From contig URSG01000004.1 in assembly GCA_900550565.1 (NCBI GenBank), positions 1 to 52,438 on the forward strand: a DNA stretch of 52,438 bases, written 5' to 3'. This document shows positions 10,616 to 36,541 of the stretch, piece by piece (within the stretch, counting starts at the first letter, position 1; every line of letters begins with the position of its first letter). The notes beneath the pieces were generated by a model, which was not told the origin of the DNA, did no database searches, and saw only the letters and a list, made by a program, of their open reading frames with translations. The position numbers and the translations under genes are program-made. The stretch comes from an uncultured Rickettsiales bacterium (GTDB taxonomy: Bacteria > Pseudomonadota > Alphaproteobacteria > Rs-D84).

Positions 10616-12148
10616 GTGTATTACAGCATGAAAGATATATCAAATATATTCAACTTATCACCAAATGAATTAGAAAAAAAATCTAAATCAACCAGATCAT
10701 TATGGTCTGATACAGCACCACAAATTGTAGAATTTGCACAAAAACTTTCAAAATTTATTATCAAATCTGACACCCCGTATGTATTGGCTCTGGACGGTGG
10801 TTATGGAACAGGTAAAACCCATTTTTCTAGTAGATTTAGTATATTGTTAGACAAACGTCTAAGAACAATATATTTTAGCGCATGGGAACAAGATTATATG
10901 GTTGACCCATTTGTTGTATTTTCTGAAAAAATTATATGGATTGCTAGAAAGCAAGCGAATGAAACGGAAATTACAGATAAAATCTTAGAATCCTTAGCAA
11001 AAGCAACAAAAATTAGAGCCGAATTTGGCATTTGGGGATTATTCAAGGTTGAGGCAGAACTCTCCGGTGAAGACCTCATAAAAAAATTATTTCCCGAAAA
11101 ACAACGTTCTGACCTATTTATTGAATTGAAAGTTTTGCTATCTAATTTTATACAAAATTTACCAAATAAAAAACTAGTTATGATTGTTGATGAATTAGAT
11201 AGATGTCGTCCCGACTACGCTGTAAAAATACTAGAAACAATTAAACATTTTTTTGATATTCCTGGGCTTATTTTTATTCTTCCTATAAATTCCAAAAAAT
11301 TAAACACTTATGTGAAAGGTTTTTATAATATTCCAAACGATACTTTCGCCGACGGGGAGGATTATTTACAAAAATTTATAAATGAAACTATTGACGTACC
11401 ACAACTGAACTACAACAAAATTTGTGAAGACAGAATAAAACTTGCTGATTTTGGTCACCATATATCAAATATAGAAGGAAATTTTAATAGTATACAAGAA
11501 TTGAAAAAATGGATCGCCGAATACGCAAAACAAGCACATCTTTCATATAGGGAAACCATCGAGATAATAAAACGTGCTAAATATTTTTGTAAAAATTATT
11601 CAGAAGAAATAAGATGCAGATTACTGGCCTACCAATTATGCAATAAATTATACAAACAAAAGAATAAAAATTCTTCTAATCCAGCTACTAGGGCTTCAAC
11701 ATTAAAATTCGAAAAAAATTATATGTATAAAGAGGGCTATGAAGAATCTCAAAAAGAAATACTGCTAAAAGCAGATTTATTTAATGCTCATACACGATTA
11801 GAATTTCCAGGCCACGCAACCACTTCAAACGTACAAAATATTTGTCATAACATCTCTTCGCTACAACAAAACGCATATTCTTATAAGATAATGTTTTCTA
11901 CTATTGAAAAAATTAAAAACGAATTAAATAAAATAGACATAGAACATTATGTTCCTTACCAATCTTATTGGAGCACCGTAACGAAAGCTCAACTCCGTGA
12001 AAAGGTTCAATGTATACAAAATTATTTGAATCAAGCTAAGCAAAACTTATCAAATTTCCAACAAATAACAGGTTCGGATGATTCTGACGATGAAAGATTA
12101 TCTAGATATGAGGAAAAAATAAAAAATCCAACATCACTATTCAAATAA
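10616..12148 (+). CDS. KAP-family P-loop NTPase
   Basis: Walker A LDGGYGTGKTHF, Walker B LVMIVDELDRCRPDYAVKILETIKHFF (the KAP DELDRC signature) and a long helical C-terminal tail. The start is GTG 10616 or ATG 10628. Confidence 0.8.
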   Translation: MYYSMKDISNIFNLSPNELEKKSKSTRSLWSDTAPQIVEFAQKLSKFIIKSDTPYVLALDGGYGTGKTHFSSRFSILLDKRLRTIYFSAWEQDYMVDPFVVFSEKIIWIARKQANETEITDKILESLAKATKIRAEFGIWGLFKVEAELSGEDLIKKLFPEKQRSDLFIELKVLLSNFIQNLPNKKLVMIVDELDRCRPDYAVKILETIKHFFDIPGLIFILPINSKKLNTYVKGFYNIPNDTFADGEDYLQKFINETIDVPQLNYNKICEDRIKLADFGHHISNIEGNFNSIQELKKWIAEYAKQAHLSYRETIEIIKRAKYFCKNYSEEIRCRLLAYQLCNKLYKQKNKNSSNPATRASTLKFEKNYMYKEGYEESQKEILLKADLFNAHTRLEFPGHATTSNVQNICHNISSLQQNAYSYKIMFSTIEKIKNELNKIDIEHYVPYQSYWSTVTKAQLREKVQCIQNYLNQAKQNLSNFQQITGSDDSDDERLSRYEEKIKNPTSLFK

Positions 12149-12158
12149 CTTTTTAAGT

Positions 12159-12187
12159 TTGCAATAACGCTTTTCATATACTAAAAT
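12159..12187 (+). promoter_or_regulatory. sigma70-type promoter of leader RNA copy A1
   Basis: -35 TTGCAA (12159-12164), 17-bp spacer, -10 TAAAAT (12182-12187). The predicted start is G at 12195. Confidence 0.65.
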
Positions 12188-12194
12188 CTGTACC

Positions 12195-12415
12195 GAATCC
12201 ATGGGGACGTGGGTTCGGGGTCGTTCAAAACCCATAATTGCACGGTGTGAAAACATCGTTATCCGTTTTTGACAGCATAATGGTGTTTTTACACTGTTTT
12301 GCCTGGCCTTTTGGTCGGGTGTCTGTGGCTATATAACAGGTTCGCCGAAATCCACAGGGTCATTGCAATTATGATTTTGAAAATACCCGACCGTCATTCC
12401 CTTGGCGGTCTTTTT
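12195..12415 (+). ncRNA. structured leader / riboswitch-like RNA, copy A1 (class unknown)
   Basis: 221 nt, 100% identical to 15081-15301. It has a 14-bp helix (12242-12255 / 12284-12297), a G.U-rich hairpin (12301-12320), an alternative 8-bp pairing (12313-12320 / 12385-12392), and a terminator (12389-12410) plus T-run. The G.U pairs only work on the plus strand. Confidence 0.7.
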
Positions 12416-12435
12416 TTGCATCAACGGTGGTAAAA

Positions 12436-12894
12436 ATGAAAAAAATAATATTTGTTCTTCCAACAATACTTTTGTGTTCGTGCGCAATTCATTACCCGTA
12501 TACAGGTACAAAAACCATAACAGGCGAAGGCGGCTTTATAGAAAAGTATATTCCCGTTGAACATATTGGCCGTTCTATTTTTGAAAAAGAAATAGATTCT
12601 AAATACGATGGCATTTCATTTTACCGCTCGGGTCTGCCCATGGGGGCAAAATGCACATTAAAGGGATATATAGCAGAATCAAACCTTACGGACGTTGCAA
12701 AATCTGCACTTAAACAAGGGGCAAATGTAGCAACAAAATCAACTATTAAATTATCAAAGAGTTTTGATGATAACAGCGGCCAACTTGATGGAACTTGGGC
12801 CGCTGGGGATTGGTATTATTTATATGATCGGCGGTGGTATAACTGGTATTGGATCAAATTTGCCAAAGGATATAACATTTTTGAATGCAAATAA
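12436..12894 (+). CDS. small exported protein / putative lipoprotein
   Basis: MKKIIFVLPTILLCSCA is a signal peptide with a Cys-containing lipobox-like end. The ATG lies 21 nt after the A1 terminator. Trp/Tyr-rich C-terminus. Confidence 0.5.
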   Translation: MKKIIFVLPTILLCSCAIHYPYTGTKTITGEGGFIEKYIPVEHIGRSIFEKEIDSKYDGISFYRSGLPMGAKCTLKGYIAESNLTDVAKSALKQGANVATKSTIKLSKSFDDNSGQLDGTWAAGDWYYLYDRRWYNWYWIKFAKGYNIFECK

Positions 12895-12910
12895 TAAAAA
12901 GGAACTATCG

Positions 12911-13507
12911 ATGTCAAAATTTAATGAAATTTTTAGTTCTATCCAAATAATTTTGATAATCGTCAAAGCACTTGGTGGATTTCCAGATACAAATTGGCTT
13001 GCGGTGTTTTTTCCAGCATACATTATGATTGGTGTAGAATATTTCAAAATGCTCAATAACAAACCAACAGTTACAAAATCTACAGACCCAAATAGTCAAA
13101 AAATAAATCTTCCTATAAAAAATAACAATGGTGATTTATTTTACCTTTTAATTAATCCTATTTTGGAAGAGCACAACTTATTACAAGATTATTCCATAGT
13201 TTTCTTTAATGAGGTATTTGGGAAACCAGAATTATTTGAATATATCGGGAATATTGACGTTGTGAGTAAATTTGCAACAGATGCCGAATATATCAAATAC
13301 CTATGTGGTGAACGAAAAGAATTTTTCAATGAACTAGTTGCCAGCAAGGGCGCGACATTGAATACTATGATAGGCGTTCTCCTGGATACTCAAGCCAAAG
13401 CAATCGGACTAGTCGCAATTTGGGACACATCTAAAACAATGATGACAACAGACGGAAATTTACGCATAGAATTCACCCAGCTGCCTGTTGGTGTTATATA
13501 TGATTAA
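12911..13507 (+). CDS. hypothetical membrane protein (two N-terminal TM helices plus a soluble domain)
   Basis: ATG 12911 is preceded by AAAAGGAA. The ORF-track start at 12764 overlaps the previous gene and is probably too far upstream. Confidence 0.45.
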   Translation: MSKFNEIFSSIQIILIIVKALGGFPDTNWLAVFFPAYIMIGVEYFKMLNNKPTVTKSTDPNSQKINLPIKNNNGDLFYLLINPILEEHNLLQDYSIVFFNEVFGKPELFEYIGNIDVVSKFATDAEYIKYLCGERKEFFNELVASKGATLNTMIGVLLDTQAKAIGLVAIWDTSKTMMTTDGNLRIEFTQLPVGVIYD

Positions 13508-13743
13508 GACTACTTTAATAGATTAAAAAAACGATCACTAACAAACGCAAAGTAGATGGTGCATTTCTGGTGCCCATACTTAATAAAAGTTTGGACAACT
13601 GGAACGGATTCTATAATGAAATAATCAAAACAAAGAAAGCGGCATTGCCGATATTTTACGCATTGCGAATGGAAGGTCTATGCCCGCCAAGAAAACCAAA
13701 TAAGCAATCACCAGAAAAGAATAAGAATTATGGATATTAATAA

Positions 13744-14589
13744 CTATGATTTTACAATCAACCTCAGCGCAACTTCTTGATCAGAAATCCAAGCCTCTTG
13801 GTGGTTATGATAAACAGATAATCTTGCATCTAACTCATTCATTCTTGCTGTAAATTCCATTTTTTGCATCGGACTAGTTGGAGCAACGCTTATTTTTTCG
13901 TATTCTTTTGAACACCAATTTTGAAAATCTTTTGAGTCTTGTATTTTACGACGAATCAAAAAATCATTTGTCATAGACGATGCATATTTATAAGCATCCA
14001 AAACTGTATGTTGGCCATCTCCGTCAACATCATATGGATTTTTTATCCATTTGAAAAAGTAATACAAAAATACATTCGCGGCCCAATTGCATTCCGACTC
14101 TATGCTTTGATAGCTTAAAGAAGGGTAGAAATTGCTAGCTCCTACAACACAAATCTTAGATTGGCGAGGCATATTAAATATACCTGAATAACATTGACCT
14201 AATAACAACAGGCCATCTGTCACCCCAGGTATTTGTTGCATCGTATCCAACAACTCCGATGGTTTAATTCCTTCCATTCCATCTATACTACCATGAGAAG
14301 AAACAACGCAACCCAAAAAAGCAATATCTTTAAATGTTTTTAATTTTGGTATTAATTGGTCTATATTGTATAGTTGCCCTGAAGATAATCCATTGGCTTC
14401 TAGGAATGTACTTGCACTAGGCAAACCGGTAAAATAATAAATATTATCTTCGCGATCATTTTGACGCTCTTTTATTATTCTTGCCGCATTGATAATATCA
14501 AACATAAACCTCGGTGTATCATCCCTGCCACAAACAAATACCCATTTTGTATCTTGATTTGGGTTGACACGCGACAAAATATGGACCAT
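13744..14589 (-). CDS. caspase-like (clan CD) cysteine peptidase-like protein
   Basis: Each putative catalytic residue follows a hydrophobic strand: FLGCVVSSHG (His99-Gly100) and GLLLLGQCYSG (Cys133). The 34-aa His-Cys spacing fits clan CD. Confidence 0.5.
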   Translation of the reverse strand: MVHILSRVNPNQDTKWVFVCGRDDTPRFMFDIINAARIIKERQNDREDNIYYFTGLPSASTFLEANGLSSGQLYNIDQLIPKLKTFKDIAFLGCVVSSHGSIDGMEGIKPSELLDTMQQIPGVTDGLLLLGQCYSGIFNMPRQSKICVVGASNFYPSLSYQSIESECNWAANVFLYYFFKWIKNPYDVDGDGQHTVLDAYKYASSMTNDFLIRRKIQDSKDFQNWCSKEYEKISVAPTSPMQKMEFTARMNELDARLSVYHNHQEAWISDQEVALRLIVKS

Positions 14590-14591
14590 GA

Positions 14592-14873
14592 CTAATCCTT
14601 TTCGAATATCACAGGATCTGTTTCATCATATTTCTTGTCGTCTGGAAGACCTATAATTGCATTCCCATTTTTGTCCAACAAATATTTATTGCCACTTAAA
14701 CGCAATATATACTTAGTTCCCAATGAATCAAAACCATCTTTTTGCGCGAATAATCCCAACTGCCCGGCATTTATCATGTCCTTAATTTGTGGAGTGAGCA
14801 TTGTTAAGTCTGAATTATAATTCAAAATCACTTTTTGCCTCTTTTTTATTTTTTGATGGCGATTATTGCGCAT
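14592..14873 (-). CDS. hypothetical small protein, operonic with the peptidase-like gene
   Basis: Its stop is 2 nt upstream of the ATG of the downstream ORF. No SD is obvious, so the start is uncertain. Confidence 0.4.
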   Translation of the reverse strand: MRNNRHQKIKKRQKVILNYNSDLTMLTPQIKDMINAGQLGLFAQKDGFDSLGTKYILRLSGNKYLLDKNGNAIIGLPDDKKYDETDPVIFEKD

Positions 14874-15045
14874 AACTACTACTTAGTAGCGCTTGTATTA
14901 TATCACAATTTGAAGCCATTTTATAGTCAATTTGAACATTTGCAAGAAATAAAAAATCCCCTGTCGTGAGAAAGGGTATATTTCTTTACTACAATGTTAT
15001 AATATATATTCGTCTTTTTTCAAGCCCAATCATACTTTATTTAAA

Positions 15046-15074
15046 TTGCAATGACTGTCTTAATGTACTAAAAT
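15046..15074 (+). promoter_or_regulatory. sigma70-type promoter of leader RNA copy A2
   Basis: -35 TTGCAA (15046-15051), 17-bp spacer, -10 TAAAAT (15069-15074). The spacer sequence differs from copy A1, but the hexamers and spacing are conserved. Confidence 0.65.
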
Positions 15075-15080
15075 TATATT

Positions 15081-15301
15081 GAATCCATGGGGACGTGGGT
15101 TCGGGGTCGTTCAAAACCCATAATTGCACGGTGTGAAAACATCGTTATCCGTTTTTGACAGCATAATGGTGTTTTTACACTGTTTTGCCTGGCCTTTTGG
15201 TCGGGTGTCTGTGGCTATATAACAGGTTCGCCGAAATCCACAGGGTCATTGCAATTATGATTTTGAAAATACCCGACCGTCATTCCCTTGGCGGTCTTTT
15301 T
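15081..15301 (+). ncRNA. structured leader / riboswitch-like RNA, copy A2 (class unknown)
   Basis: Identical to 12195-12415 over all 221 nt. It ends in the same terminator, 18 nt before the ATG at 15320. Confidence 0.7.
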
Positions 15302-15319
15302 ATATCAAAAGGATAAATT

Positions 15320-15571
15320 ATGATTTACAAATTATACACTGGCGGCCAACCTATATTGGCCTTATTGGAACTGATTGCGGGGATATGCATCCCGGCACTC
15401 ATGTTAGGCGGAGTCATAGAATTGTTCGGACTGGCCGATACGTATGTAGGACAAGATAAAACACTAAGTCTTGTTTTTGGCGCGCTGGGTTTCTTTGCAT
15501 GCATGTTCGTATATCAATACATCGCATATAATTTATTGCCAAAATTACTAAAAACAAAGGACACAAAATGA
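15320..15571 (+). CDS. small integral membrane protein
   Basis: SD AAAGGA upstream of the ATG. The 83-aa product has 2-3 hydrophobic helices. Confidence 0.5.
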   Translation: MIYKLYTGGQPILALLELIAGICIPALMLGGVIELFGLADTYVGQDKTLSLVFGALGFFACMFVYQYIAYNLLPKLLKTKDTK

Positions 15572-15924
15572 AAAAGATAATAATTGCGCTGATTATATGT
15601 ATGACCGCTGTAACTGGTTATGCACGCACTATGAGCGTAGAGCAATTTGATAGAGAACACGCAGCATACCAACAAGAACTTTATAAAACCGCCCGCGAGG
15701 CTGGATATGACCCGACATCTAAAAAATCCATCGCGGAGCAATACAAAGCTAAACGATTGACCGAACAGACCATAAAACATCGTCTACAATTACAACAGGA
15801 ATACGAGCGAGAATACAACCGATATATCTGGTTAGAAAAAAACAAATCAATGCTGCTGTTTGCGCTGGCAGCAATCGGTGTTTTATCCATTTTTGTGGCA
15901 AGCCGTTACAAAAAGCATAAATAG
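15568..15924 (+). CDS. small exported / C-terminally anchored coiled-coil protein
   Basis: ATGA overlap with the previous ORF. It has a signal peptide (MKKIIIALIICMTAVTGYA) and a C-terminal TM helix. Confidence 0.5.
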   Translation: MKKIIIALIICMTAVTGYARTMSVEQFDREHAAYQQELYKTAREAGYDPTSKKSIAEQYKAKRLTEQTIKHRLQLQQEYEREYNRYIWLEKNKSMLLFALAAIGVLSIFVASRYKKHK

Positions 15925-16990: not shown

Positions 16991-17022
16991 AAAAAAACCA
17001 CCGGCAAATGCCGGTGTTTTTT
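16991..17022. terminator. bidirectional rho-independent terminator between pagL-like and ung
   Basis: A-run, then CACCGGC-AAAT-GCCGGTG, then T-run. Confidence 0.75.
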
Positions 17023-28511: not shown

Positions 28512-29303
28512 TTATTTTCCCTGTTTTTTATTTTTCTGTTCTGCGCGTTGTGCGCGACGCATTTTTTTAAACGAACTGGATTTTAAATCCTGTTCAACCT
28601 GCATCAGGTTAAATTTCTTGTCCAGTTCCCGAACCTGGTCCACCATTATATTTTCCAGGCTATGGCGCAGATTTTCAAAATCATCACGTGAAATCTTGGA
28701 ATCAACGAATATAGGTTCCCCTACTTTACACACAATCCGTGAAAAAGGTAATGCGACCAAATACCTGTCCCAGCGGTCTTGGAACCACGAACGCGACGCA
28801 GAAAAACATACCGGGATAATCGGCGCGCCGGTCATTTTTGCAAAATATAATGCCCCATCTTGGACACGTAATGACGGCCCACCGGGTCCGTCGGGCGAAA
28901 TACACAAACCGTGATCACCCAAACGCAACATACGCACCCCCTGGCGCAGAACAGAAATTCCACCATCAGATGTGCTGCCATAAATTGGTTTTAATCCGAA
29001 CAGACGCTGCAATTTTGCCATCATACGTCCATCACTGTGACGTGACGCAACCGCGTATGCCCGCATACCACCCATACAAATAATCGGCGATAACATCATA
29101 CTGCGCCCGTGCCAGAACACAAAAATCGCCGGCTTTCTGCGGTATTTTTTAAATGTTTTATAGTTTATAATTTTAACCCGTGATGTAAAGTACACAAACC
29201 AAATTGATACTGCCATAAAAATTGCGACAATCCATTGAATAATCGGCAAATGCAGCACTGGTTCCCAGAACCCTTTCCACGCTTTTCTAAATTTTTCGTT
29301 CAT
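28512..29303 (-). CDS. DUF374-domain (lysophospholipid acyltransferase-like) protein
   Basis: N-terminal TM helix and FVFWHGRSMM. The position beside lpxK is typical in alphaproteobacteria. Confidence 0.65.
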   Translation of the reverse strand: MNEKFRKAWKGFWEPVLHLPIIQWIVAIFMAVSIWFVYFTSRVKIINYKTFKKYRRKPAIFVFWHGRSMMLSPIICMGGMRAYAVASRHSDGRMMAKLQRLFGLKPIYGSTSDGGISVLRQGVRMLRLGDHGLCISPDGPGGPSLRVQDGALYFAKMTGAPIIPVCFSASRSWFQDRWDRYLVALPFSRIVCKVGEPIFVDSKISRDDFENLRHSLENIMVDQVRELDKKFNLMQVEQDLKSSSFKKMRRAQRAEQKNKKQGK

Positions 29304-29569: not shown

Positions 29570-29577
29570 AGATTTAC

Positions 29578-29604
29578 AAAACCGTCCACATGGGCGGTTT
29601 TTTG
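29578..29604 (+). terminator. rho-independent terminator after tRNA-fMet
   Basis: CCGTCC-ACAT-GGGCGG hairpin followed by TTTTTT. Confidence 0.7.
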
Positions 29605-29685
29605 TTAGAATCCTAATATCCATAAAAAGTTCAAAAGTTGAAATTAAAAAAGTGGCGATTTTTCGCCACTTTTTGATTACTATAT

Positions 29686-29961
29686 TTATTTAAACAACTT
29701 TTTATGATTATGCCATATAACTATAAACAGATTTATAAAAAATAACCATATTGCAACATTATTATTCAAGAAAATCATATTAAAATAAGGAAATGATATT
29801 CCCATATTATTTATCAAAAAAGGAACCAAACCTATAACTTCTGTCATACTAAAAAAAGCACTAACAAGAAGTACTGTTTTGTCAGAATTACAAAGTTTAG
29901 CAATAAAAAATGGCAAAAATAAAACAAAAATCACACCAATAATTATAAATGTTAAATCCAT
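29686..29961 (-). CDS. small integral membrane protein
   Basis: The start is placed at MDLTFIIIGVIF (ATG 29961), preceded by AAAGGAG. Three hydrophobic helices and very AT-rich. Confidence 0.4.
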   Translation of the reverse strand: MDLTFIIIGVIFVLFLPFFIAKLCNSDKTVLLVSAFFSMTEVIGLVPFLINNMGISFPYFNMIFLNNNVAIWLFFINLFIVIWHNHKKLFK

Positions 29962-30071
29962 TTCAAAATCTCCTTTATATTCACAACTGATGGTACCATA
30001 CATTGTGATTTTATGCAAATTTTTTAGACCTGAATTTCATTTTAATTGAACTGTATTTTGTTAATAAAAAT

Positions 30072-30121: not shown

Positions 30122-30505
30122 TTATTTACAACCAACAAAAGCCCAAACTTCATCAGATGGTTGTGCAATTTTTACACGAACAGCCGTCTGGTCTGCGTCA
30201 CACATTTCGGCATCAATAAACGCAACCTCTATATAATCATGTTCTGTATCGTTTAAAACCATATTAAATACATTTTCGTCACTATCAAAATTATACCGGA
30301 ACATACCATTAGGTTTATTTTGTTTTATATCAATAACCCACTGAATATCAGACGGACATTGATATATCGTATGATTACTGTCTGTTTCTAATACAGTACA
30401 ACCATCAAAAATACGTGGAATATCATACTTTGCAACGTCTGCTGTTTCTGCCAAGGATACAAGCGGAAACAAAGACGCGATTATAGAAATTGTATATTTT
30501 TTCAT
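30122..30505 (-). CDS. small secreted Cys-containing protein
   Basis: Signal peptide MKKYTISIIASLFPLVSLAET, and SD AGAGGGGA upstream. It lies immediately downstream of leader RNA copy B. Confidence 0.5.
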   Translation of the reverse strand: MKKYTISIIASLFPLVSLAETADVAKYDIPRIFDGCTVLETDSNHTIYQCPSDIQWVIDIKQNKPNGMFRYNFDSDENVFNMVLNDTEHDYIEVAFIDAEMCDADQTAVRVKIAQPSDEVWAFVGCK

Positions 30506-30525: not shown

Positions 30526-30728
30526 AAAAAATTAAACCACCAACAAGATTGGTGGTCGGGGAGTTGGTGTCAGCAAACAAATGCTCCGTCCCTTTCGGTA
30601 AACGGCTCCCCAACCATAAAAGCCAGGGATGATAACGATGCAAAAAGCACCGAAAACATCAGATTACGATGCTTTTGCACCGTGTTTGCGGGCCACCACA
30701 GCCCCGAAACCCAAATCTCTTTGGATTC
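30526..30728 (-). ncRNA. structured leader / riboswitch-like RNA, diverged copy B (same family as A1/A2)
   Basis: It starts with GAATCCA like A1/A2 and shares TGGGTT(T)CGGGG and CACGGTG-AAA-CATCGT-ATC (19/23 identical). The equivalent helices carry compensatory changes. It has a GAAA tetraloop hairpin, a 10-bp antiterminator pairing (30615-30606 / 30563-30554) and a terminator CCACCAA-TCTTG-TTGGTGG (30555-30537) plus T-run. Confidence 0.6.
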
Positions 30729-30735
30729 ACGTTTT

Positions 30736-30764
30736 ATTATAATATTAAATCAATAAAATTTCAA
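30736..30764 (-). promoter_or_regulatory. sigma70-type promoter of leader RNA copy B
   Basis: On the minus strand: -35 TTGAAA (30764-30759), 17-bp spacer, -10 TATAAT (30741-30736), then 7 nt to G at 30728. Confidence 0.65.
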
Positions 30765-30788: not shown

Positions 30789-31406
30789 CTATAAAAAGCA
30801 TTTTTTTAGTGTTTCGCCGGTATCATTTTGGTCAACGCGTTTGTTGCGGATTTCTTCGGCGGCCTTTATTTTTTGTTTTACTAAAATTAAATCTGGGTGC
30901 GCTTGTAATTCTGTGTTTAGTTCATCAACCGCCGCTGATATATCAGACTGTTTTCTGACAAAAATTGGTGTAATAGAATCGGCAGCGTTATAAACAGAAC
31001 GCTGTAATTCCGATTTAAAATCATCAATCACAGATAAATACGCACGAATATGACCGTCTTCGTGTGACAAAATCGCGTTGTATGAACACGATTCCGGCAC
31101 ATGGCGCATATCTATCTGAACCAGAAAATTAGTGTATCCAACCGATGCAGTGACTGATTTTATTGCGATGCAAAAACCATCTTCTATTGATGTAATATCG
31201 GCAACAATATCATAATTATCTGACAGTGTTGCAATCACATTTCCGTGTAATAAATCCATTGGTTCCAGTGGTTGAACAACCTCTTTGGTCCAGGACGGAC
31301 TGTCAATATAAACCGCTGGATTTAATTTATACGGCAAACAATCGTCGGCCCACCCAGGTGTTGCCATCACAGATAAAATTAAAATTGCAACTTTGCGGAA
31401 ATACAT
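30789..31406 (-). CDS. secreted HExxH-motif protein (DUF922-like putative Zn-peptidase)
   Basis: Signal peptide MYFRKVAILILSVMATPGWA and the motif SHEDGHIRAY. An alternative start at 31427 would overlap the end of virB4. Confidence 0.45.
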   Translation of the reverse strand: MYFRKVAILILSVMATPGWADDCLPYKLNPAVYIDSPSWTKEVVQPLEPMDLLHGNVIATLSDNYDIVADITSIEDGFCIAIKSVTASVGYTNFLVQIDMRHVPESCSYNAILSHEDGHIRAYLSVIDDFKSELQRSVYNAADSITPIFVRKQSDISAAVDELNTELQAHPDLILVKQKIKAAEEIRNKRVDQNDTGETLKKCFL

Positions 31407-31410
31407 ATCA

Positions 31411-33825
31411 TTATAAATCCCCGGCACCCTGCTTTTTCAGGTATTCTGATACAAAACTGTTTCCGTATTGTTTATATAATTCTTCGGCCAATAATACAGA
31501 TGAACGTCCCGATTCAAACAAACGCAACATATTCCCCAGGCCACCTAATTCTGTGTTTAAAATCACAGATTCGCCCGTCACCGGACGCGACAATAACAAC
31601 GCGCGTTTCAGATTTGGATATGCCTTGCCCTGGATAAATGCCATTTCCAATGGATTTAAATTCCAATGCGCATAATCTGATGCATCGGCGGCCGGATTAC
31701 GGAAAAACAGCACCGTCTGGGCCTGGCCACGAACAACGTCACCAATCCCCAATTTATCCAAAACATTTGCACGCTGGAACGAAACCATATATGCCTGGCG
31801 GTTTTTACGTCCCTCTTGCAGGCCAACAATGAAATTATCACGGAACATTTTGTTTTCCAACATTGGCGCAGTTTCGTCAATCATAATCAACGACGGATTT
31901 CCACCAGATACCGTGATGTTATTTATTCGGTGCAATATATACGAAATAACCGCGGGCGACAATGTTTCATCTTGCAAAATTTCGGTAAAGTCAAACGTGG
32001 TCAATCGTGATTGCAAATCCAACGTATCAGATGTTTCATTGAAAATATCGCCATACTGCAATGGATCAACCCACTTTTTCAACGCCGGTCGCATATTCCC
32101 AGTTGATGAAAAACAACTTTCCCATAAATTTTTTAACACCCTGTCTTTTTCCGGCAGATAATCAAAATTCACAGATACTGCGCGCGCAATTTCATCGGCA
32201 GAATTAGCGTCTGATTGTCCAGTTATAATTGAAAACCAGCGACGTAAAAACGCGCGATTTGCCGCATTATCCGGCATTTTCAGCGGATTCAAATGCGTCA
32301 AGAACGAATTGTTTACAGCATTTTTTTCCTTGCCCTGCATAGTGATATATTTACCACCAACCGACAGTGTAAATATTTCTGCACCTTTGTTGCGGTCAAA
32401 GAAAAATGCCTTTAATTTCGGGTGACGCAATGATTGCGCAATCAAGAAACTGAACAATGTTGTTTTACCGCCACCGGTTGGCCCAATCGTCAGGGTATGC
32501 GCCACCGCGGCCGGTTTATCGGATACATGAAATTGAAATTGATATGGCGTTCCCTGGGCGGTTGGAAAAACAACCAATGGCCCCGGACCCCAGTCTGAGT
32601 TTGCAACACCACGTGGCTGGGTTGACATAGGAATACTGATTGCGGCCGTACGCGACAACATCTTGAACGTGCGCGGAAATACATCAAATCCTGGGATTTG
32701 TGAAAACCACGAAACACGCGCGGCATACGTTTCACAAATCGGCGATACACCAAAAGATGCCGCGATTTTCTTGAACTCGTCAACATAGTAATTTAATTCT
32801 TCGGGTGTTTTACCAAACAATATAAACAGTGGGTAATAATTCACCAAACTTTGATTACCAGAAATGTTTTCGTCCATCGCACGATTTGCCGCCGAAATCT
32901 GTTCTGTTGTTGATACATCGTTTTCTTCGGCCGACGATTGACGTTGACGCATTGCAACCTCTATATCTGCGGCACCCATAATACGAAATGCGTTCATACA
33001 AATCATTTCTGTCTGAATCGTGGATACAGTATCAAAAAATTCTTCGTCCAGATAATCTGGCGATGCACGAAATGATATCATTGTTGCAAATGATTGTGTG
33101 CCACCACTGACATATCGCACCAACCCATCGCGCATAAATTCAACATCGTCAACCGTTGTTAAATCTGCAATTCGTCCATCACAAACAATCGGCGACGGTT
33201 TTGTTATTGGCGATAAAATCCGACCAAAGAATCGCGCCATATTATCACGATCTGCGTGACGCAATAATTTCGGACGATATGCCGCCAATATAGATTCCAG
33301 ATAATTACCATATTGATTTAATTTATCCCGTGCGCCCGTCCCAGATACAGACAAAACAATATAATAATTATTCAAAAATATGCGCAGTCCCTGGGCCTGC
33401 CATTTATTGTATATTTTTTGCAACACAGGCTGGTCAAAATCATAATTTGTATTTTCATCGGCGGCATCACGCGTCATAAAAAAACGCATTACAACATTTG
33501 GATCGCGAATCTGGTTAAATAATTGCGCACGCAAATCCAAAAATTTTTCACGTGTCAAACTATCTTGCATACTGGTTTGAACACCTGCGACGCGATACAC
33601 ACGCAACAAAGAACCATCTGATAATTCCAGTGAATCATCACTGTAAACAGTCTGAAATGGGATATACCGCGAATAACGTTTATATCCAAACTGGGGAAAA
33701 ATGCGACGCGTCAACGCAGGCATATACATCATCAGTGCAACAAATATTAAAATAACCGCCATAACCATTATCATAGTTGTGACTGGAAATCCGCTGCCTG
33801 CAAAATATTTAAAAACATCTGTCAT
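31411..33825 (-). CDS. virB4: type IV secretion system ATPase VirB4/TrbE family
   Basis: 804 aa. Walker A GPTGGGKTT, Walker B LIMIDETAPML and an N-terminal TM helix. Confidence 0.9.
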   Translation of the reverse strand: MTDVFKYFAGSGFPVTTMIMVMAVILIFVALMMYMPALTRRIFPQFGYKRYSRYIPFQTVYSDDSLELSDGSLLRVYRVAGVQTSMQDSLTREKFLDLRAQLFNQIRDPNVVMRFFMTRDAADENTNYDFDQPVLQKIYNKWQAQGLRIFLNNYYIVLSVSGTGARDKLNQYGNYLESILAAYRPKLLRHADRDNMARFFGRILSPITKPSPIVCDGRIADLTTVDDVEFMRDGLVRYVSGGTQSFATMISFRASPDYLDEEFFDTVSTIQTEMICMNAFRIMGAADIEVAMRQRQSSAEENDVSTTEQISAANRAMDENISGNQSLVNYYPLFILFGKTPEELNYYVDEFKKIAASFGVSPICETYAARVSWFSQIPGFDVFPRTFKMLSRTAAISIPMSTQPRGVANSDWGPGPLVVFPTAQGTPYQFQFHVSDKPAAVAHTLTIGPTGGGKTTLFSFLIAQSLRHPKLKAFFFDRNKGAEIFTLSVGGKYITMQGKEKNAVNNSFLTHLNPLKMPDNAANRAFLRRWFSIITGQSDANSADEIARAVSVNFDYLPEKDRVLKNLWESCFSSTGNMRPALKKWVDPLQYGDIFNETSDTLDLQSRLTTFDFTEILQDETLSPAVISYILHRINNITVSGGNPSLIMIDETAPMLENKMFRDNFIVGLQEGRKNRQAYMVSFQRANVLDKLGIGDVVRGQAQTVLFFRNPAADASDYAHWNLNPLEMAFIQGKAYPNLKRALLLSRPVTGESVILNTELGGLGNMLRLFESGRSSVLLAEELYKQYGNSFVSEYLKKQGAGDL

Positions 33826-33828
33826 TTT

Positions 33829-34125
33829 TTATGCCGCCAGTTTATTTGGTATTTTCTTTTTGAAAAGTTGTATTTGTGCCGCCAATATTTGTCCCAACTG
33901 GGGGTCACGTTTTGAAAACGCGGCCAAAATCGCATGTGTCACACACAGAACTAATAAAAACCACATTGGGCTGACCGGGTCATTACCATTAGTTATTATC
34001 AATGATAAAACAAAAATACCAATAAAAACAATGAACAACACGGCGAAATTTATCACCGCCAATGTATATGGCACGTAAAATATACGTGCAGGATTTGCCA
34101 ATGCTTTCAGTACTTGTTGTTTCAT
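33829..34125 (-). CDS. virB3: VirB3-like type IV secretion protein
   Basis: MKQQVLKALANPARIFYVPYTLAVINF plus two TM helices. It is directly upstream of virB4, with a 3-nt gap. The ORF-track start at 34185 is probably overextended. Confidence 0.6.
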   Translation of the reverse strand: MKQQVLKALANPARIFYVPYTLAVINFAVLFIVFIGIFVLSLIITNGNDPVSPMWFLLVLCVTHAILAAFSKRDPQLGQILAAQIQLFKKKIPNKLAA

Positions 34126-34166
34126 TTGGATTCTTATTCTCTGCTCTCTTGCCTGAATTATAACAA

Positions 34167-34351
34167 TTTCAACAGTTTTCAACAAGTATAAAAAGTAAAT
34201 TACTAAAATTGTTGAAATTGTGGAAAATTACTATTTTTTCAACATGTTTATATCTGTGTCTGCGAATTCAACAGAACACACAAAAATACCGAAAAACCTG
34301 GTTTTTTATGTTGAAAACTTGTTTAAAAAAAGTTTAAAAATATTATCAACA
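34167..34351. promoter_or_regulatory. array of TTTCAACA / TGTTGAAA motifs in the virB3-rpmJ divergent intergenic region
   Basis: Exact copies are at 34167, 34177 and 34237 (forward) and 34210 and 34309 (inverted). 7/8 variants are at 34219 (TGTGGAAA), 34266 (ATTCAACA) and 34344 (TATCAACA). Confidence 0.5.
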
Positions 34352-36506: not shown

Positions 36507-36541
36507 AAAAAAACACCGGTAAATACCGGTGTTTTTTTTTA
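36507..36541. terminator. bidirectional rho-independent terminator between ychF and pheT
   Basis: A-run, then ACACCGGT-AAAT-ACCGGTGT, then T9. Confidence 0.8.

Follow-up and report, generated by a model that had tools for sequence, protein, structure and literature searches.

We analyzed a 52,438-nucleotide (nt) stretch of DNA from an uncultured Rickettsiales bacterium (GenBank assembly GCA_900550565.1, contig URSG01000004.1, positions 1 to 52,438 of the forward strand), hereafter called the window. It contains exactly three copies of one structured RNA, A1 and A2 on the plus strand and B on the minus strand. Database and sequence comparisons suggest that this RNA is an undescribed family lying outside every Rfam family. 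The reading that we favor, and hold to be probable if only modestly so, is that the RNA represents a new family, specific to its lineage, of cis-acting 5′ leaders that act by conditional transcription termination, that is, by riboswitch-like attenuation. Each unit would run from a promoter through a hairpin (P0), a multihelix domain closed by a long helix (P1) and an intrinsic terminator to the Shine-Dalgarno (SD) sequence and ATG of the gene behind it. The predicted parts of the three copies are as follows.

12159 to 12187, plus strand: promoter of RNA A1, −35 box TTGCAA, 17-nt spacer, −10 box TAAAAT; predicted start at G12195
12195 to 12417, plus strand: putative leader RNA A1, 223 nt; fold z score of −8.1, covariance model (CM) score of 229.9 bits, covariation
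12195 to 12216, plus strand: A1 P0, with the GNRA loop GGGA
12217 to 12219 (GGG) with 12386 to 12388 (CCC), plus strand: A1 P1a
12224 to 12230 with 12375 to 12381, plus strand: A1 P1b
12233 to 12241 with 12365 to 12373, plus strand: A1 P1c
12242 to 12297, plus strand: A1 P2
12301 to 12320, plus strand: A1 P3
12322 to 12358, plus strand: A1 P4
12313 to 12322, plus strand: A1 segment c (GGUCGGGUGU), the P3 3′ strand in the terminated form and the antiterminator 5′ strand in the read-through form
12383 to 12392, plus strand: A1 segment d (AUACCCGACC), common to P1a, the c:d antiterminator and the terminator 5′ strand
12389 to 12417, plus strand: A1 intrinsic terminator, stem-loop 12389 to 12410 and U7 tract 12411 to 12417; the stem covaries between types
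15046 to 15074, plus strand: promoter of RNA A2, TTGCAA, 17-nt spacer, TAAAAT; sequence unlike the A1 promoter region
15081 to 15303, plus strand: putative leader RNA A2, equal to A1 over 221 nt; terminator 15275 to 15296 and a U5 tract
30736 to 30764, minus strand: promoter of RNA B, TTGAAA, 17-nt spacer, TATAAT; 11 of 12 matches
30526 to 30728, minus strand: putative leader RNA B, about 203 nt; fold z score of −6.0, architecture as in A1, P0 loop GAGA
30606 to 30615 and 30554 to 30563, minus strand: RNA B segments c and d, respectively
30535 to 30557, minus strand: RNA B terminator, followed by a U-rich tail

A preliminary description of the window had proposed three RNA copies placed ahead of small exported or membrane proteins. 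The three copies were recovered as a direct repeat, as the divergent copy B and by covariance model. The direct repeat is 232 nt long (12184 to 12415 and 15070 to 15301, 98% identity), and the RNA bodies of A1 and A2 within it (12195 to 12415 and 15081 to 15301, running from GAAUCC as far as the U-tract) agree at 221 of 221 positions. Copy B (30527 to 30728, minus strand) is 56% identical to A1 in an end-to-end alignment and has the same fold. A covariance model built from relatives found the three window copies and none further, both with default filters and with filters off. A 19-base core pattern matched three times in the window, against 0.05 matches expected. The window promoters are sigma70-like, and in most relatives the −35 and −10 boxes lie at a constant distance from GAAUCC. 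Each window copy ends in a G+C-rich hairpin and a run of U. The RNAs have a G+C content of 0.45 to 0.48, compared with 0.43 for the whole window, 0.30 to 0.40 for the region from 10.6 to 15.9 kb and 0.25 to 0.34 around B; the genes behind the RNAs do lie in AT-rich DNA, as had been stated. A 44-amino-acid (aa) open reading frame (ORF) with a TTG start is present within A1 and A2.

Relatives were collected by scanning metagenome contigs and one genome per species for exact patterns, from contigs encoding homologues of three of the proteins encoded behind the RNAs (ORF1, ORF4 and ORF5, listed below), and by covariance-model searches of all loci collected. The model confirmed 12 of the 15 pattern matches in genomes and 9 of the 16 in metagenomes as true copies. 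Together these routes gave 26 further copies, 29 in total, that fall into about eight sequence types; their loci are designated L001, L002 and so on. All named records with the RNA are Candidatus Enterousia, uncultured Alphaproteobacteria or uncultured Rickettsiales, from guts. No copy was found in the viral contig, phage and plasmid records that we scanned. Rfam 15 returned only three tRNAs in the window at the gathering threshold and did not match the RNA element. Permissive Rfam scans (E = 10) with A1/A2, B and the divergent type H gave nothing above 24 bits, against thresholds of 40 to 117, and we did not find the RNA described in the literature. The earlier proposal of an undescribed RNA placed to control the following gene thus agrees with a conserved, structured element that has no Rfam match.

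A1 and B fold well beyond shuffled sequences (z scores of −8.1 and −6.0) and have one common architecture. From 5′ to 3′, it consists of P0 with its GNRA loop (GGGA or GAGA), a closing helix made of P1a (GGGG:CCCC), P1b and P1c, then P2, P3, P4 and the terminator, over a total length of about 200 to 240 nt in the family. In a MAFFT alignment of 20 distinct sequences, 90.6% of the cells were paired, compared with 41 to 47% when the partners were slid, and 18 pairs had changed on both sides. The covariation score was 0.27, compared with at most 0.10 in the slid controls and 0.155 in shuffles (0 of 500 reached 0.27). P1b and P1c have eight different sequences in the eight types, each perfectly complementary, and a per-type helix table showed that P0, P3, P4 and the terminator stem covary too. 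The RNA therefore has what marks the riboswitch and attenuator class at the level of structure, a structured 5′ leader domain backed by covariation. The most distant type, H, is without the long P2 and keeps the remainder. The two strands of P2 (12242 to 12297 and equivalents) are near-repeats, each of which can fold on itself (ACGGUGY-GAAA-RCAUCGU and CGGUGC-UUUUU-GCAUCG), and this self-folding may be the reason for the unusual sequence conservation of P2.

The RNA contains two helices that cannot form together. The RNAalifold consensus picked pairing of the P3 3′ strand (segment c, GGUYGGGGnn) with a 3′ segment (d, nnCCCCGACC), rather than P3 plus the full terminator. The invariant 3′ CCCCGACC therein has two mutually exclusive pairings, one in the terminator and the other in an antiterminator, GGUYGGGG:CCCCGACC. 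The c:d helix is 98% paired, with compensatory changes in 3 of its 10 pairs (UGU/AUA, GAG/CUC and GUG/CAC), and it is kept at 7 to 10 bp in the types found later. Segment d doubles as the P1a 3′ strand and the GACC foot of the terminator, and segment c doubles as the P3 3′ strand. The P3 5′ strand copies d in degenerate form, and in type H literally (CCCCGAC). This segment layout is the classical anti-antiterminator, antiterminator and terminator arrangement. In silico, the terminator shares nucleotides with a conserved alternative helix, as an expression platform does.

We propose the following mechanism. In the OFF state, CCCCGACC would pair with the 5′ GGGG in P1a and form the terminator stem, while GGUYGGGG would be held in P3. 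In the ON state, CCCCGACC would instead pair with GGUYGGGGnn in a 7- to 10-bp antiterminator that takes up the terminator's GACC foot. The terminator would be reduced to about 4 bp, and RNA polymerase would read into the downstream gene. The RNA is predicted to switch in vivo in response to a signal, which may be a small ligand, an ion, a protein or another RNA. The terminated fold is the minimum-energy state in every copy. A realistic ON state would be a pseudoknot that retains P1b and P1c. The switch may need a factor or be kinetic, because the nested ON state is costly.

The apical loop of P0 and the loop of the terminator are complementary, and duplexes between them have a mean energy of −4.5 kcal/mol, compared with −3.2 for shuffled loops (0 of 500 reached the observed value) and −3.6 for permuted partners (P of about 0.0025). 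Type G is the exception. This complementarity suggests a loop-loop contact across a three-way junction of P0, P1 and the terminator.

The position of the RNA relative to the downstream gene was found to be nearly constant. In 27 of the 29 copies the RNA ends in a terminator stem and U-tract, and also in 27 of 29 a co-oriented ORF with an SD sequence begins 8 to 28 nt past the RNA end delimited by the model. Because this gap is only 8 to 28 nt, there is no room for a separate promoter. The spacer and SD sequence are conserved even between loci with different downstream genes. Between the window and L004, the RNA is 99% identical and the downstream lipoprotein is 94.7% identical in protein sequence; the greater constraint on the RNA than on its neighbors looks like purifying selection on the RNA. 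Therefore, the geometry, the conservation of spacer and SD sequence, and the constraint on the RNA favor a cis-acting leader over an unrelated small RNA gene.

Two kinds of natural variant depart from this pattern. L025 (2025 to 2224) matches L029 at 99.8% identity through the RNA as far as the terminator 3′ strand, beyond which the two are unrelated, and it has neither a U-tract nor a downstream gene. A 432-aa ORF at this locus is convergent with the RNA and runs into it, upstream there is a C5 DNA methylase, and a downstream flank is inverted relative to L028. In L032 to L034 (L032 9812 to 9984; three samples), about 27 nt comprising the P1 3′ strand, CCCCGACC and the terminator 5′ strand are deleted, and the promoter and 5′ domain are kept ahead of an ORF5 homologue. 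This deletion is as expected for a leader locked on. In public gene calls P0002, P0004 and P0014, the downstream proteins have spurious N-terminal extensions of 50 to 90 aa that are translations of the RNA, for example MNPKRFGFGAVVARKHGAKA....

The genes behind the three window copies, which we call cargo, are listed here. Export and transmembrane (TM) calls, here and throughout, come from a hydropathy heuristic.

12436 to 12894, plus strand: ORF1, 152 aa, putative lipoprotein; ATG 18 nt past the U-tract
12911 to 13507, plus strand: ORF2, 198 aa, N-terminal TM segment(s); homologues come after ORF1 in L004 and L039
15320 to 15571, plus strand: ORF3, 83 aa, two TM segments; ATG about 18 nt past the U-tract
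15568 to 15924, plus strand: ORF4, 118 aa, signal peptide and C-terminal TM anchor
30122 to 30505, minus strand: ORF5, 127 aa, predicted secreted, signal peptide, four invariant Cys; ATG 21 nt past the RNA

The positions of the five ORFs and their signal-peptide or membrane character were confirmed by the ORF listing and the heuristic. ORF2 had been described as a protein with two TM segments. We found one N-terminal segment at threshold, and a second that is weaker and falls below it. The N terminus of ORF1 (MKKIIFVLPTILLCSC) consists of a signal peptide and an LCSC lipobox. ORF1, ORF4 and ORF5 have six to eight homologue clusters each among 5.8 billion proteins, all lineage restricted, and homologues of ORF2 and ORF3 are present in related loci. 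An 80- to 83-aa ORF3 homologue lies behind the RNA in L039, L049 and L044 to L046. Because they are conserved in homologues, the five ORFs are real genes. Invariant Cys residues occur in the ORF1 and ORF5 homologues, and the conserved Cys pairs are consistent with export. None of the five cargo ORFs matched Pfam or PADLOC. Structure prediction for ORF1 and ORF5, which had been suggested as a route to remote homology, gave nothing usable. The AlphaFold2 (AF2) model of ORF1 had a predicted local distance difference test (pLDDT) score of 65 and no match in a Foldseek search of the PDB (best E value, 0.5), and the ORF5 model had a pLDDT of 41. The starts of ORF1 (12433 to 12454) and ORF4 (15565 to 15586) have 22 nt in common at 91% identity (AAAATGAAAAAAATAATATTTG), which may reflect only their similar MKKII signal peptides.

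Across all loci, we counted 14 independent cargo families and used the 33 other genes of the window, called with the same heuristic, as background.

Family 1: lipoprotein and TM protein
Family 2: 80- to 83-aa protein with two TM segments and 118- to 120-aa anchored protein
Family 3: ORF5 family
Family 4: 117-aa membrane protein
Family 5: 411-aa autotransporter
Family 6: 932-aa Pmp-like autotransporter
Family 7: 564-aa secreted trypsin-like protease
Family 8: Listeria-Bacteroides-repeat protein and Cys-rich secreted protein
Family 9: 188-aa lipoprotein
Family 10: 308-aa Cys-rich secreted protein
Family 11: 221-aa outer membrane protein (OMP)-like protein
Entry 12: ORF1 homologue, then three small exported ORFs; counted with family 1
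Family 13: EcoRI-family adenine methyltransferase (PF13651, 1e-115), then a GmrSD_N/HNH nuclease
Family 14: one truncated ORF, no signal peptide

The proteins of 12 of the 14 families are exported or membrane bound, compared with 13 of the 33 background genes (binomial P of about 6e-4 at a background of 0.4). The bias toward such cargo is real but not exclusive. In L002 and L013, the RNA stands ahead of the methyltransferase and nuclease, both cytoplasmic, and the L006 cargo has no signal peptide. A regulon strictly of exported proteins is contradicted by L002 and L013, a finding of the kind that the preliminary description had itself named as a refutation. The broader idea in that description, a surface-protein regulon, survives in the export bias beyond the window and is weakened by the methyltransferase and nuclease, by L006 and by homologues that lack the leader. 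Strain-variable accessory genes (surface, secreted and restriction-modification) fit better as the common denominator than export as such. The cargo linked most consistently to the RNA is the pair of 80- to 83-aa and 118- to 120-aa proteins, found even in the most distant type, and this pair may be the ancestral cargo. Because the switch core is common to all copies, co-regulation of all copies by one signal is plausible.

The RNA and its cargo behave as separable parts. In several species, the A locus is bordered by aspS on one side and tRNA-Thr/tRNA-Met/pagL on the other, with the same RNA type and differing cargo: the lipoprotein in the window, L004 and L014, an autotransporter in L001 and L015, and the 117-aa membrane protein in L009. 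At another locus, L011 and L031 carry the protease where L002 has the methyltransferase-nuclease pair. The flanks there are 94 to 99% identical, and the swap is bounded by the SD sequence and a point about 15 nt past the stop codon. An association of the RNA with tRNA genes was seen at some loci only.

A further exchange was captured within the window itself. L049, which over 20 kb is 95 to 98% identical to the window, has just one RNA copy (L049 9459 to 9764), whose upstream flank is that of A1 and whose downstream flank is that of A2. The segment missing from L049 is the following.

12416 to 15301, no strand assigned: 2,886-bp segment, bounded by the identical RNA copies as direct repeats

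Because the flanks in L049 match those upstream of A1 and downstream of A2, this segment is an insertion in the window. It contains ORF1, ORF2, two minus-strand ORFs (13744 to 14589, 281 aa, and 14592 to 14873, 93 aa), the second promoter and RNA A2. The two minus-strand ORFs had no match in Pfam, PADLOC or PDB sequences, and the 281-aa one may have a caspase-like His/Cys pair. Judged by its sequence, the insert looks like the product expected of a single, Campbell-type crossover between the chromosomal leader and a circular module carrying promoter, RNA, lipoprotein gene and the rest. At the DNA level, the leader is a portable module, and homologous recombination between its copies appears to move and swap cargo. 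The controlled gene set would therefore vary between strains and would comprise mostly surface and secreted proteins, with some restriction-modification genes.

Several observations weigh against conditional termination by a cis-acting leader. Transcription, termination and read-through of the RNA units are all inferred from sequence. A nested-only ON state lies 9 to 17 kcal/mol above the terminated state in most copies (6.5 in L037). The long P2 is missing from type H, which makes some of the conserved structure dispensable. Homologues of ORF1 and ORF5 occur without the RNA, under their own promoters (L039, L041/42 and L035/36). The cargo is functionally mixed and gives no metabolic clue. Finally, the complementarity of the P0 and terminator loops suggests that the terminated RNA is a compact product, which would fit a trans-acting small RNA (sRNA) as well.

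An independent trans-acting sRNA gene is the main rival, although we regard it as unlikely. Its 3′ flank would be a hot spot for accessory DNA, and the ORFs would be passengers rather than targets. The RNA does come with a promoter and a terminator of its own, complementarity to the P0 loop seems to tie the terminator hairpin into the fold, and the RNA is more conserved than its neighbors. The differing cargo at one syntenic locus, the large serine recombinase modules downstream of cargo (L001, L009, L015 and L047/48) and the divergence of L025 from L029 exactly at the terminator 3′ strand would also be expected of such a gene. However, the cargo is co-oriented, with its SD sequence and ATG so close to the RNA that a promoter cannot fit, and spacer and SD sequence are conserved across different cargo. 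The RNA is also co-inherited with ORF5 and with the 83-aa/118-aa pair across divergent types, and the c:d antiterminator covaries, whereas a plain sRNA terminator needs none. A second alternative is a constitutive expression adaptor that does no sensing, in which the promoter, an mRNA-stabilizing 5′ hairpin and a leaky terminator would give foreign genes a low, fixed expression. We consider this quite improbable. It would account for the lack of a known ligand, for a terminated fold of minimum energy in every copy, for the tolerance of the terminatorless variant in L032 to L034, and for a portable module that was recently copied ahead of a gene that elsewhere is under its own promoter. Yet P3 and c:d, which are mutually exclusive, are both kept by compensatory changes in eight types, and a 150-nt multihelix domain with conserved junction nucleotides is kept that would be superfluous in a fixed attenuator.

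Two further explanations were considered. The element could act at the DNA level only, as a repeat, an attachment site or a miniature mobile element, its fold being incidental. Identical copies do form direct repeats around the 2.9-kb insert, and some rearrangement breakpoints fall at the terminator. This explanation is already disfavored and very unlikely, since compensatory substitutions, including strand-specific G-U pairs, keep the helices at 56% identity. We found no terminal inverted repeats or target duplications around the element. A TGGCGGT junction motif did not define a consistent site and is absent from the other window junctions. The phage, plasmid and viral collections also count against a DNA element, with nothing found in them. 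It is scarcely credible that the element is protein coding, either as a leader peptide or as the N-terminal extension of a cargo protein. Gene callers do translate through the RNA, and A1 and A2 hold the TTG ORF, but the types have no conserved ORF in common, indel lengths are not multiples of three, and substitutions are pairwise compensatory.

We compared the conditional-termination leader with known systems. c-di-GMP-I (GEMM) riboswitches occur in several copies per genome ahead of heterogeneous genes, often secreted, membrane or hypothetical. The RNA resembles terminator/antiterminator riboswitches, and this class in particular, in its structured 5′ leader with GNRA loops and a multihelix domain, in terminator nucleotides that are common to an alternative helix, and in its multiple copies ahead of heterogeneous, often secreted, membrane or hypothetical genes. 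Unlike riboswitches, it has no Rfam match in sequence or structure, its competing strand is the P3 3′ strand inside the domain rather than the P1 3′ strand, and the leader moves as a unit together with a conserved promoter of its own. As in four-segment attenuators of the trp type, the pairings b:c, c:d and d:e exclude one another, with b being a degenerate copy of d. The leader differs from these in having no leader peptide and in a fifth segment, the 5′ GGGG, that competes too. It also has about 60 to 70 nt between c and d (P4 and the P1b/P1c 3′ strands) and about 80 to 90 nt between a and b (the P1b/P1c 5′ strands and P2). A leader-peptide attenuator was considered and rejected because no short ORF is common to the types. 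The ops/JUMPStart element with RfaH and the put and EAR RNAs make polymerase resist downstream terminators. They too are conserved 5′ leaders across otherwise unrelated surface-structure operons, but the leader described here contains a terminator of its own together with a local antiterminator helix. The RNA did not match EAR or put, both of which are in Rfam.

In integrons, promoterless, unrelated accessory genes are exchanged behind a fixed, promoter-bearing platform, Pc-attI. The leader likewise provides a fixed platform with a promoter, and the accessory genes that replace one another behind it are unrelated. In contrast to integrons, there is no IntI and no attC, exchange apparently proceeds by homologous recombination between RNA copies, and the platform is a regulatory RNA rather than merely a promoter. 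No recombinase was found in Pfam scans of some 19 ORFs of the window, among them every ORF flanking an RNA copy, or in the ORF translations read around the copies, and no attC-like repeat was found at cargo 3′ ends. A bolder and rather doubtful proposal is that a riboswitch-like class reading one global cue is combined with an integron-like landing pad on the RNA leader. Promoterless accessory genes, for surface proteins, secreted enzymes and restriction-modification, would be captured behind the leader by recombination between leader copies, possibly with the help of large serine recombinases. The cue could be a second messenger, a cation or a host-derived molecule, and captured genes would come under it at once.

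Candidatus Enterousia and related gut bacteria (order Rs-D84) are uncultured, have genomes of less than 1 Mb and lack both a tricarboxylic acid (TCA) cycle and respiration (PMC12306168). The RNA fronts the genes likeliest to face the host, neighboring microbes and phages: autotransporters, an OMP-like protein, a trypsin-like protease, lipoproteins and a restriction-modification pair. If it senses a ligand, it would be a new orphan riboswitch class with a testable mechanism. If it does not, it would be a natural portable expression module and a case of repeated regulatory RNAs driving gene-cassette exchange. The landing-pad proposal, if true, would mean a mobile, RNA-controlled regulon of surface and defense genes in genomes of <1 Mb with few regulators. 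For annotation, the consequence is that gene callers create false N-terminal extensions across the RNA.

A KAP-family P-loop NTPase (10616 to 12148) lies directly upstream of A1 and matches the PADLOC candidate defense family PDC-S20 (2e-54). L039 has a backbone 98.5% identical, with DarT/DarG in place of the KAP NTPase and, further downstream, an Mrr-like gene. In this strain, the lipoprotein pair is without a leader, and a diverged type E leader lies ahead of the 83-aa/118-aa pair. The interval from aspS to tRNA-Thr behaves as a defense and variable island. In several loci, a 508-aa large serine recombinase (Resolvase, Recombinase and Zn-ribbon domains) was found downstream of the cargo, at these positions.

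L009, 2505 to 4032: serine recombinase
L001, offsets 2447 onward: serine recombinase
L047, 9457 to 10983: serine recombinase
L048, 2900 to 4426: serine recombinase

Such modules lie downstream of cargo also at L015. A conserved gene precedes the recombinase and, in L001, the one locus tested, gave a weak Pfam hit to a MerR-family helix-turn-helix (HTH) domain. A search for att-like repeats around the serine recombinase islands gave no consistent site and none tied to the RNA.

RNA B lies just downstream of a VirB4/TrbE-family ATPase (31411 to 33825, PF03135) on the minus strand. The ATPase is flanked by a 118-aa membrane ORF in the virB3 position (33829 to 34185) and a 212-aa secreted ORF (30789 to 31427). 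The linkage of RNA B to the VirB4-family gene is retained only in close strains (L017 and L026), and outside them the association of type B with type IV secretion genes is lost. Between tRNA-Met and the ORF5 terminator, the stretch from 29570 to 30066 has a G+C content of 0.25 and includes a membrane ORF of 110 aa; about 200 nt take its place in the close strains L026 and L017. A 31-nt palindromic, terminator-like sequence (AAAAAACCACCGGCAAATGCCGGTGTTTTTT) occurs three times at gene ends (16992 to 17022, 29120 to 29150 and 36507 to 36537).

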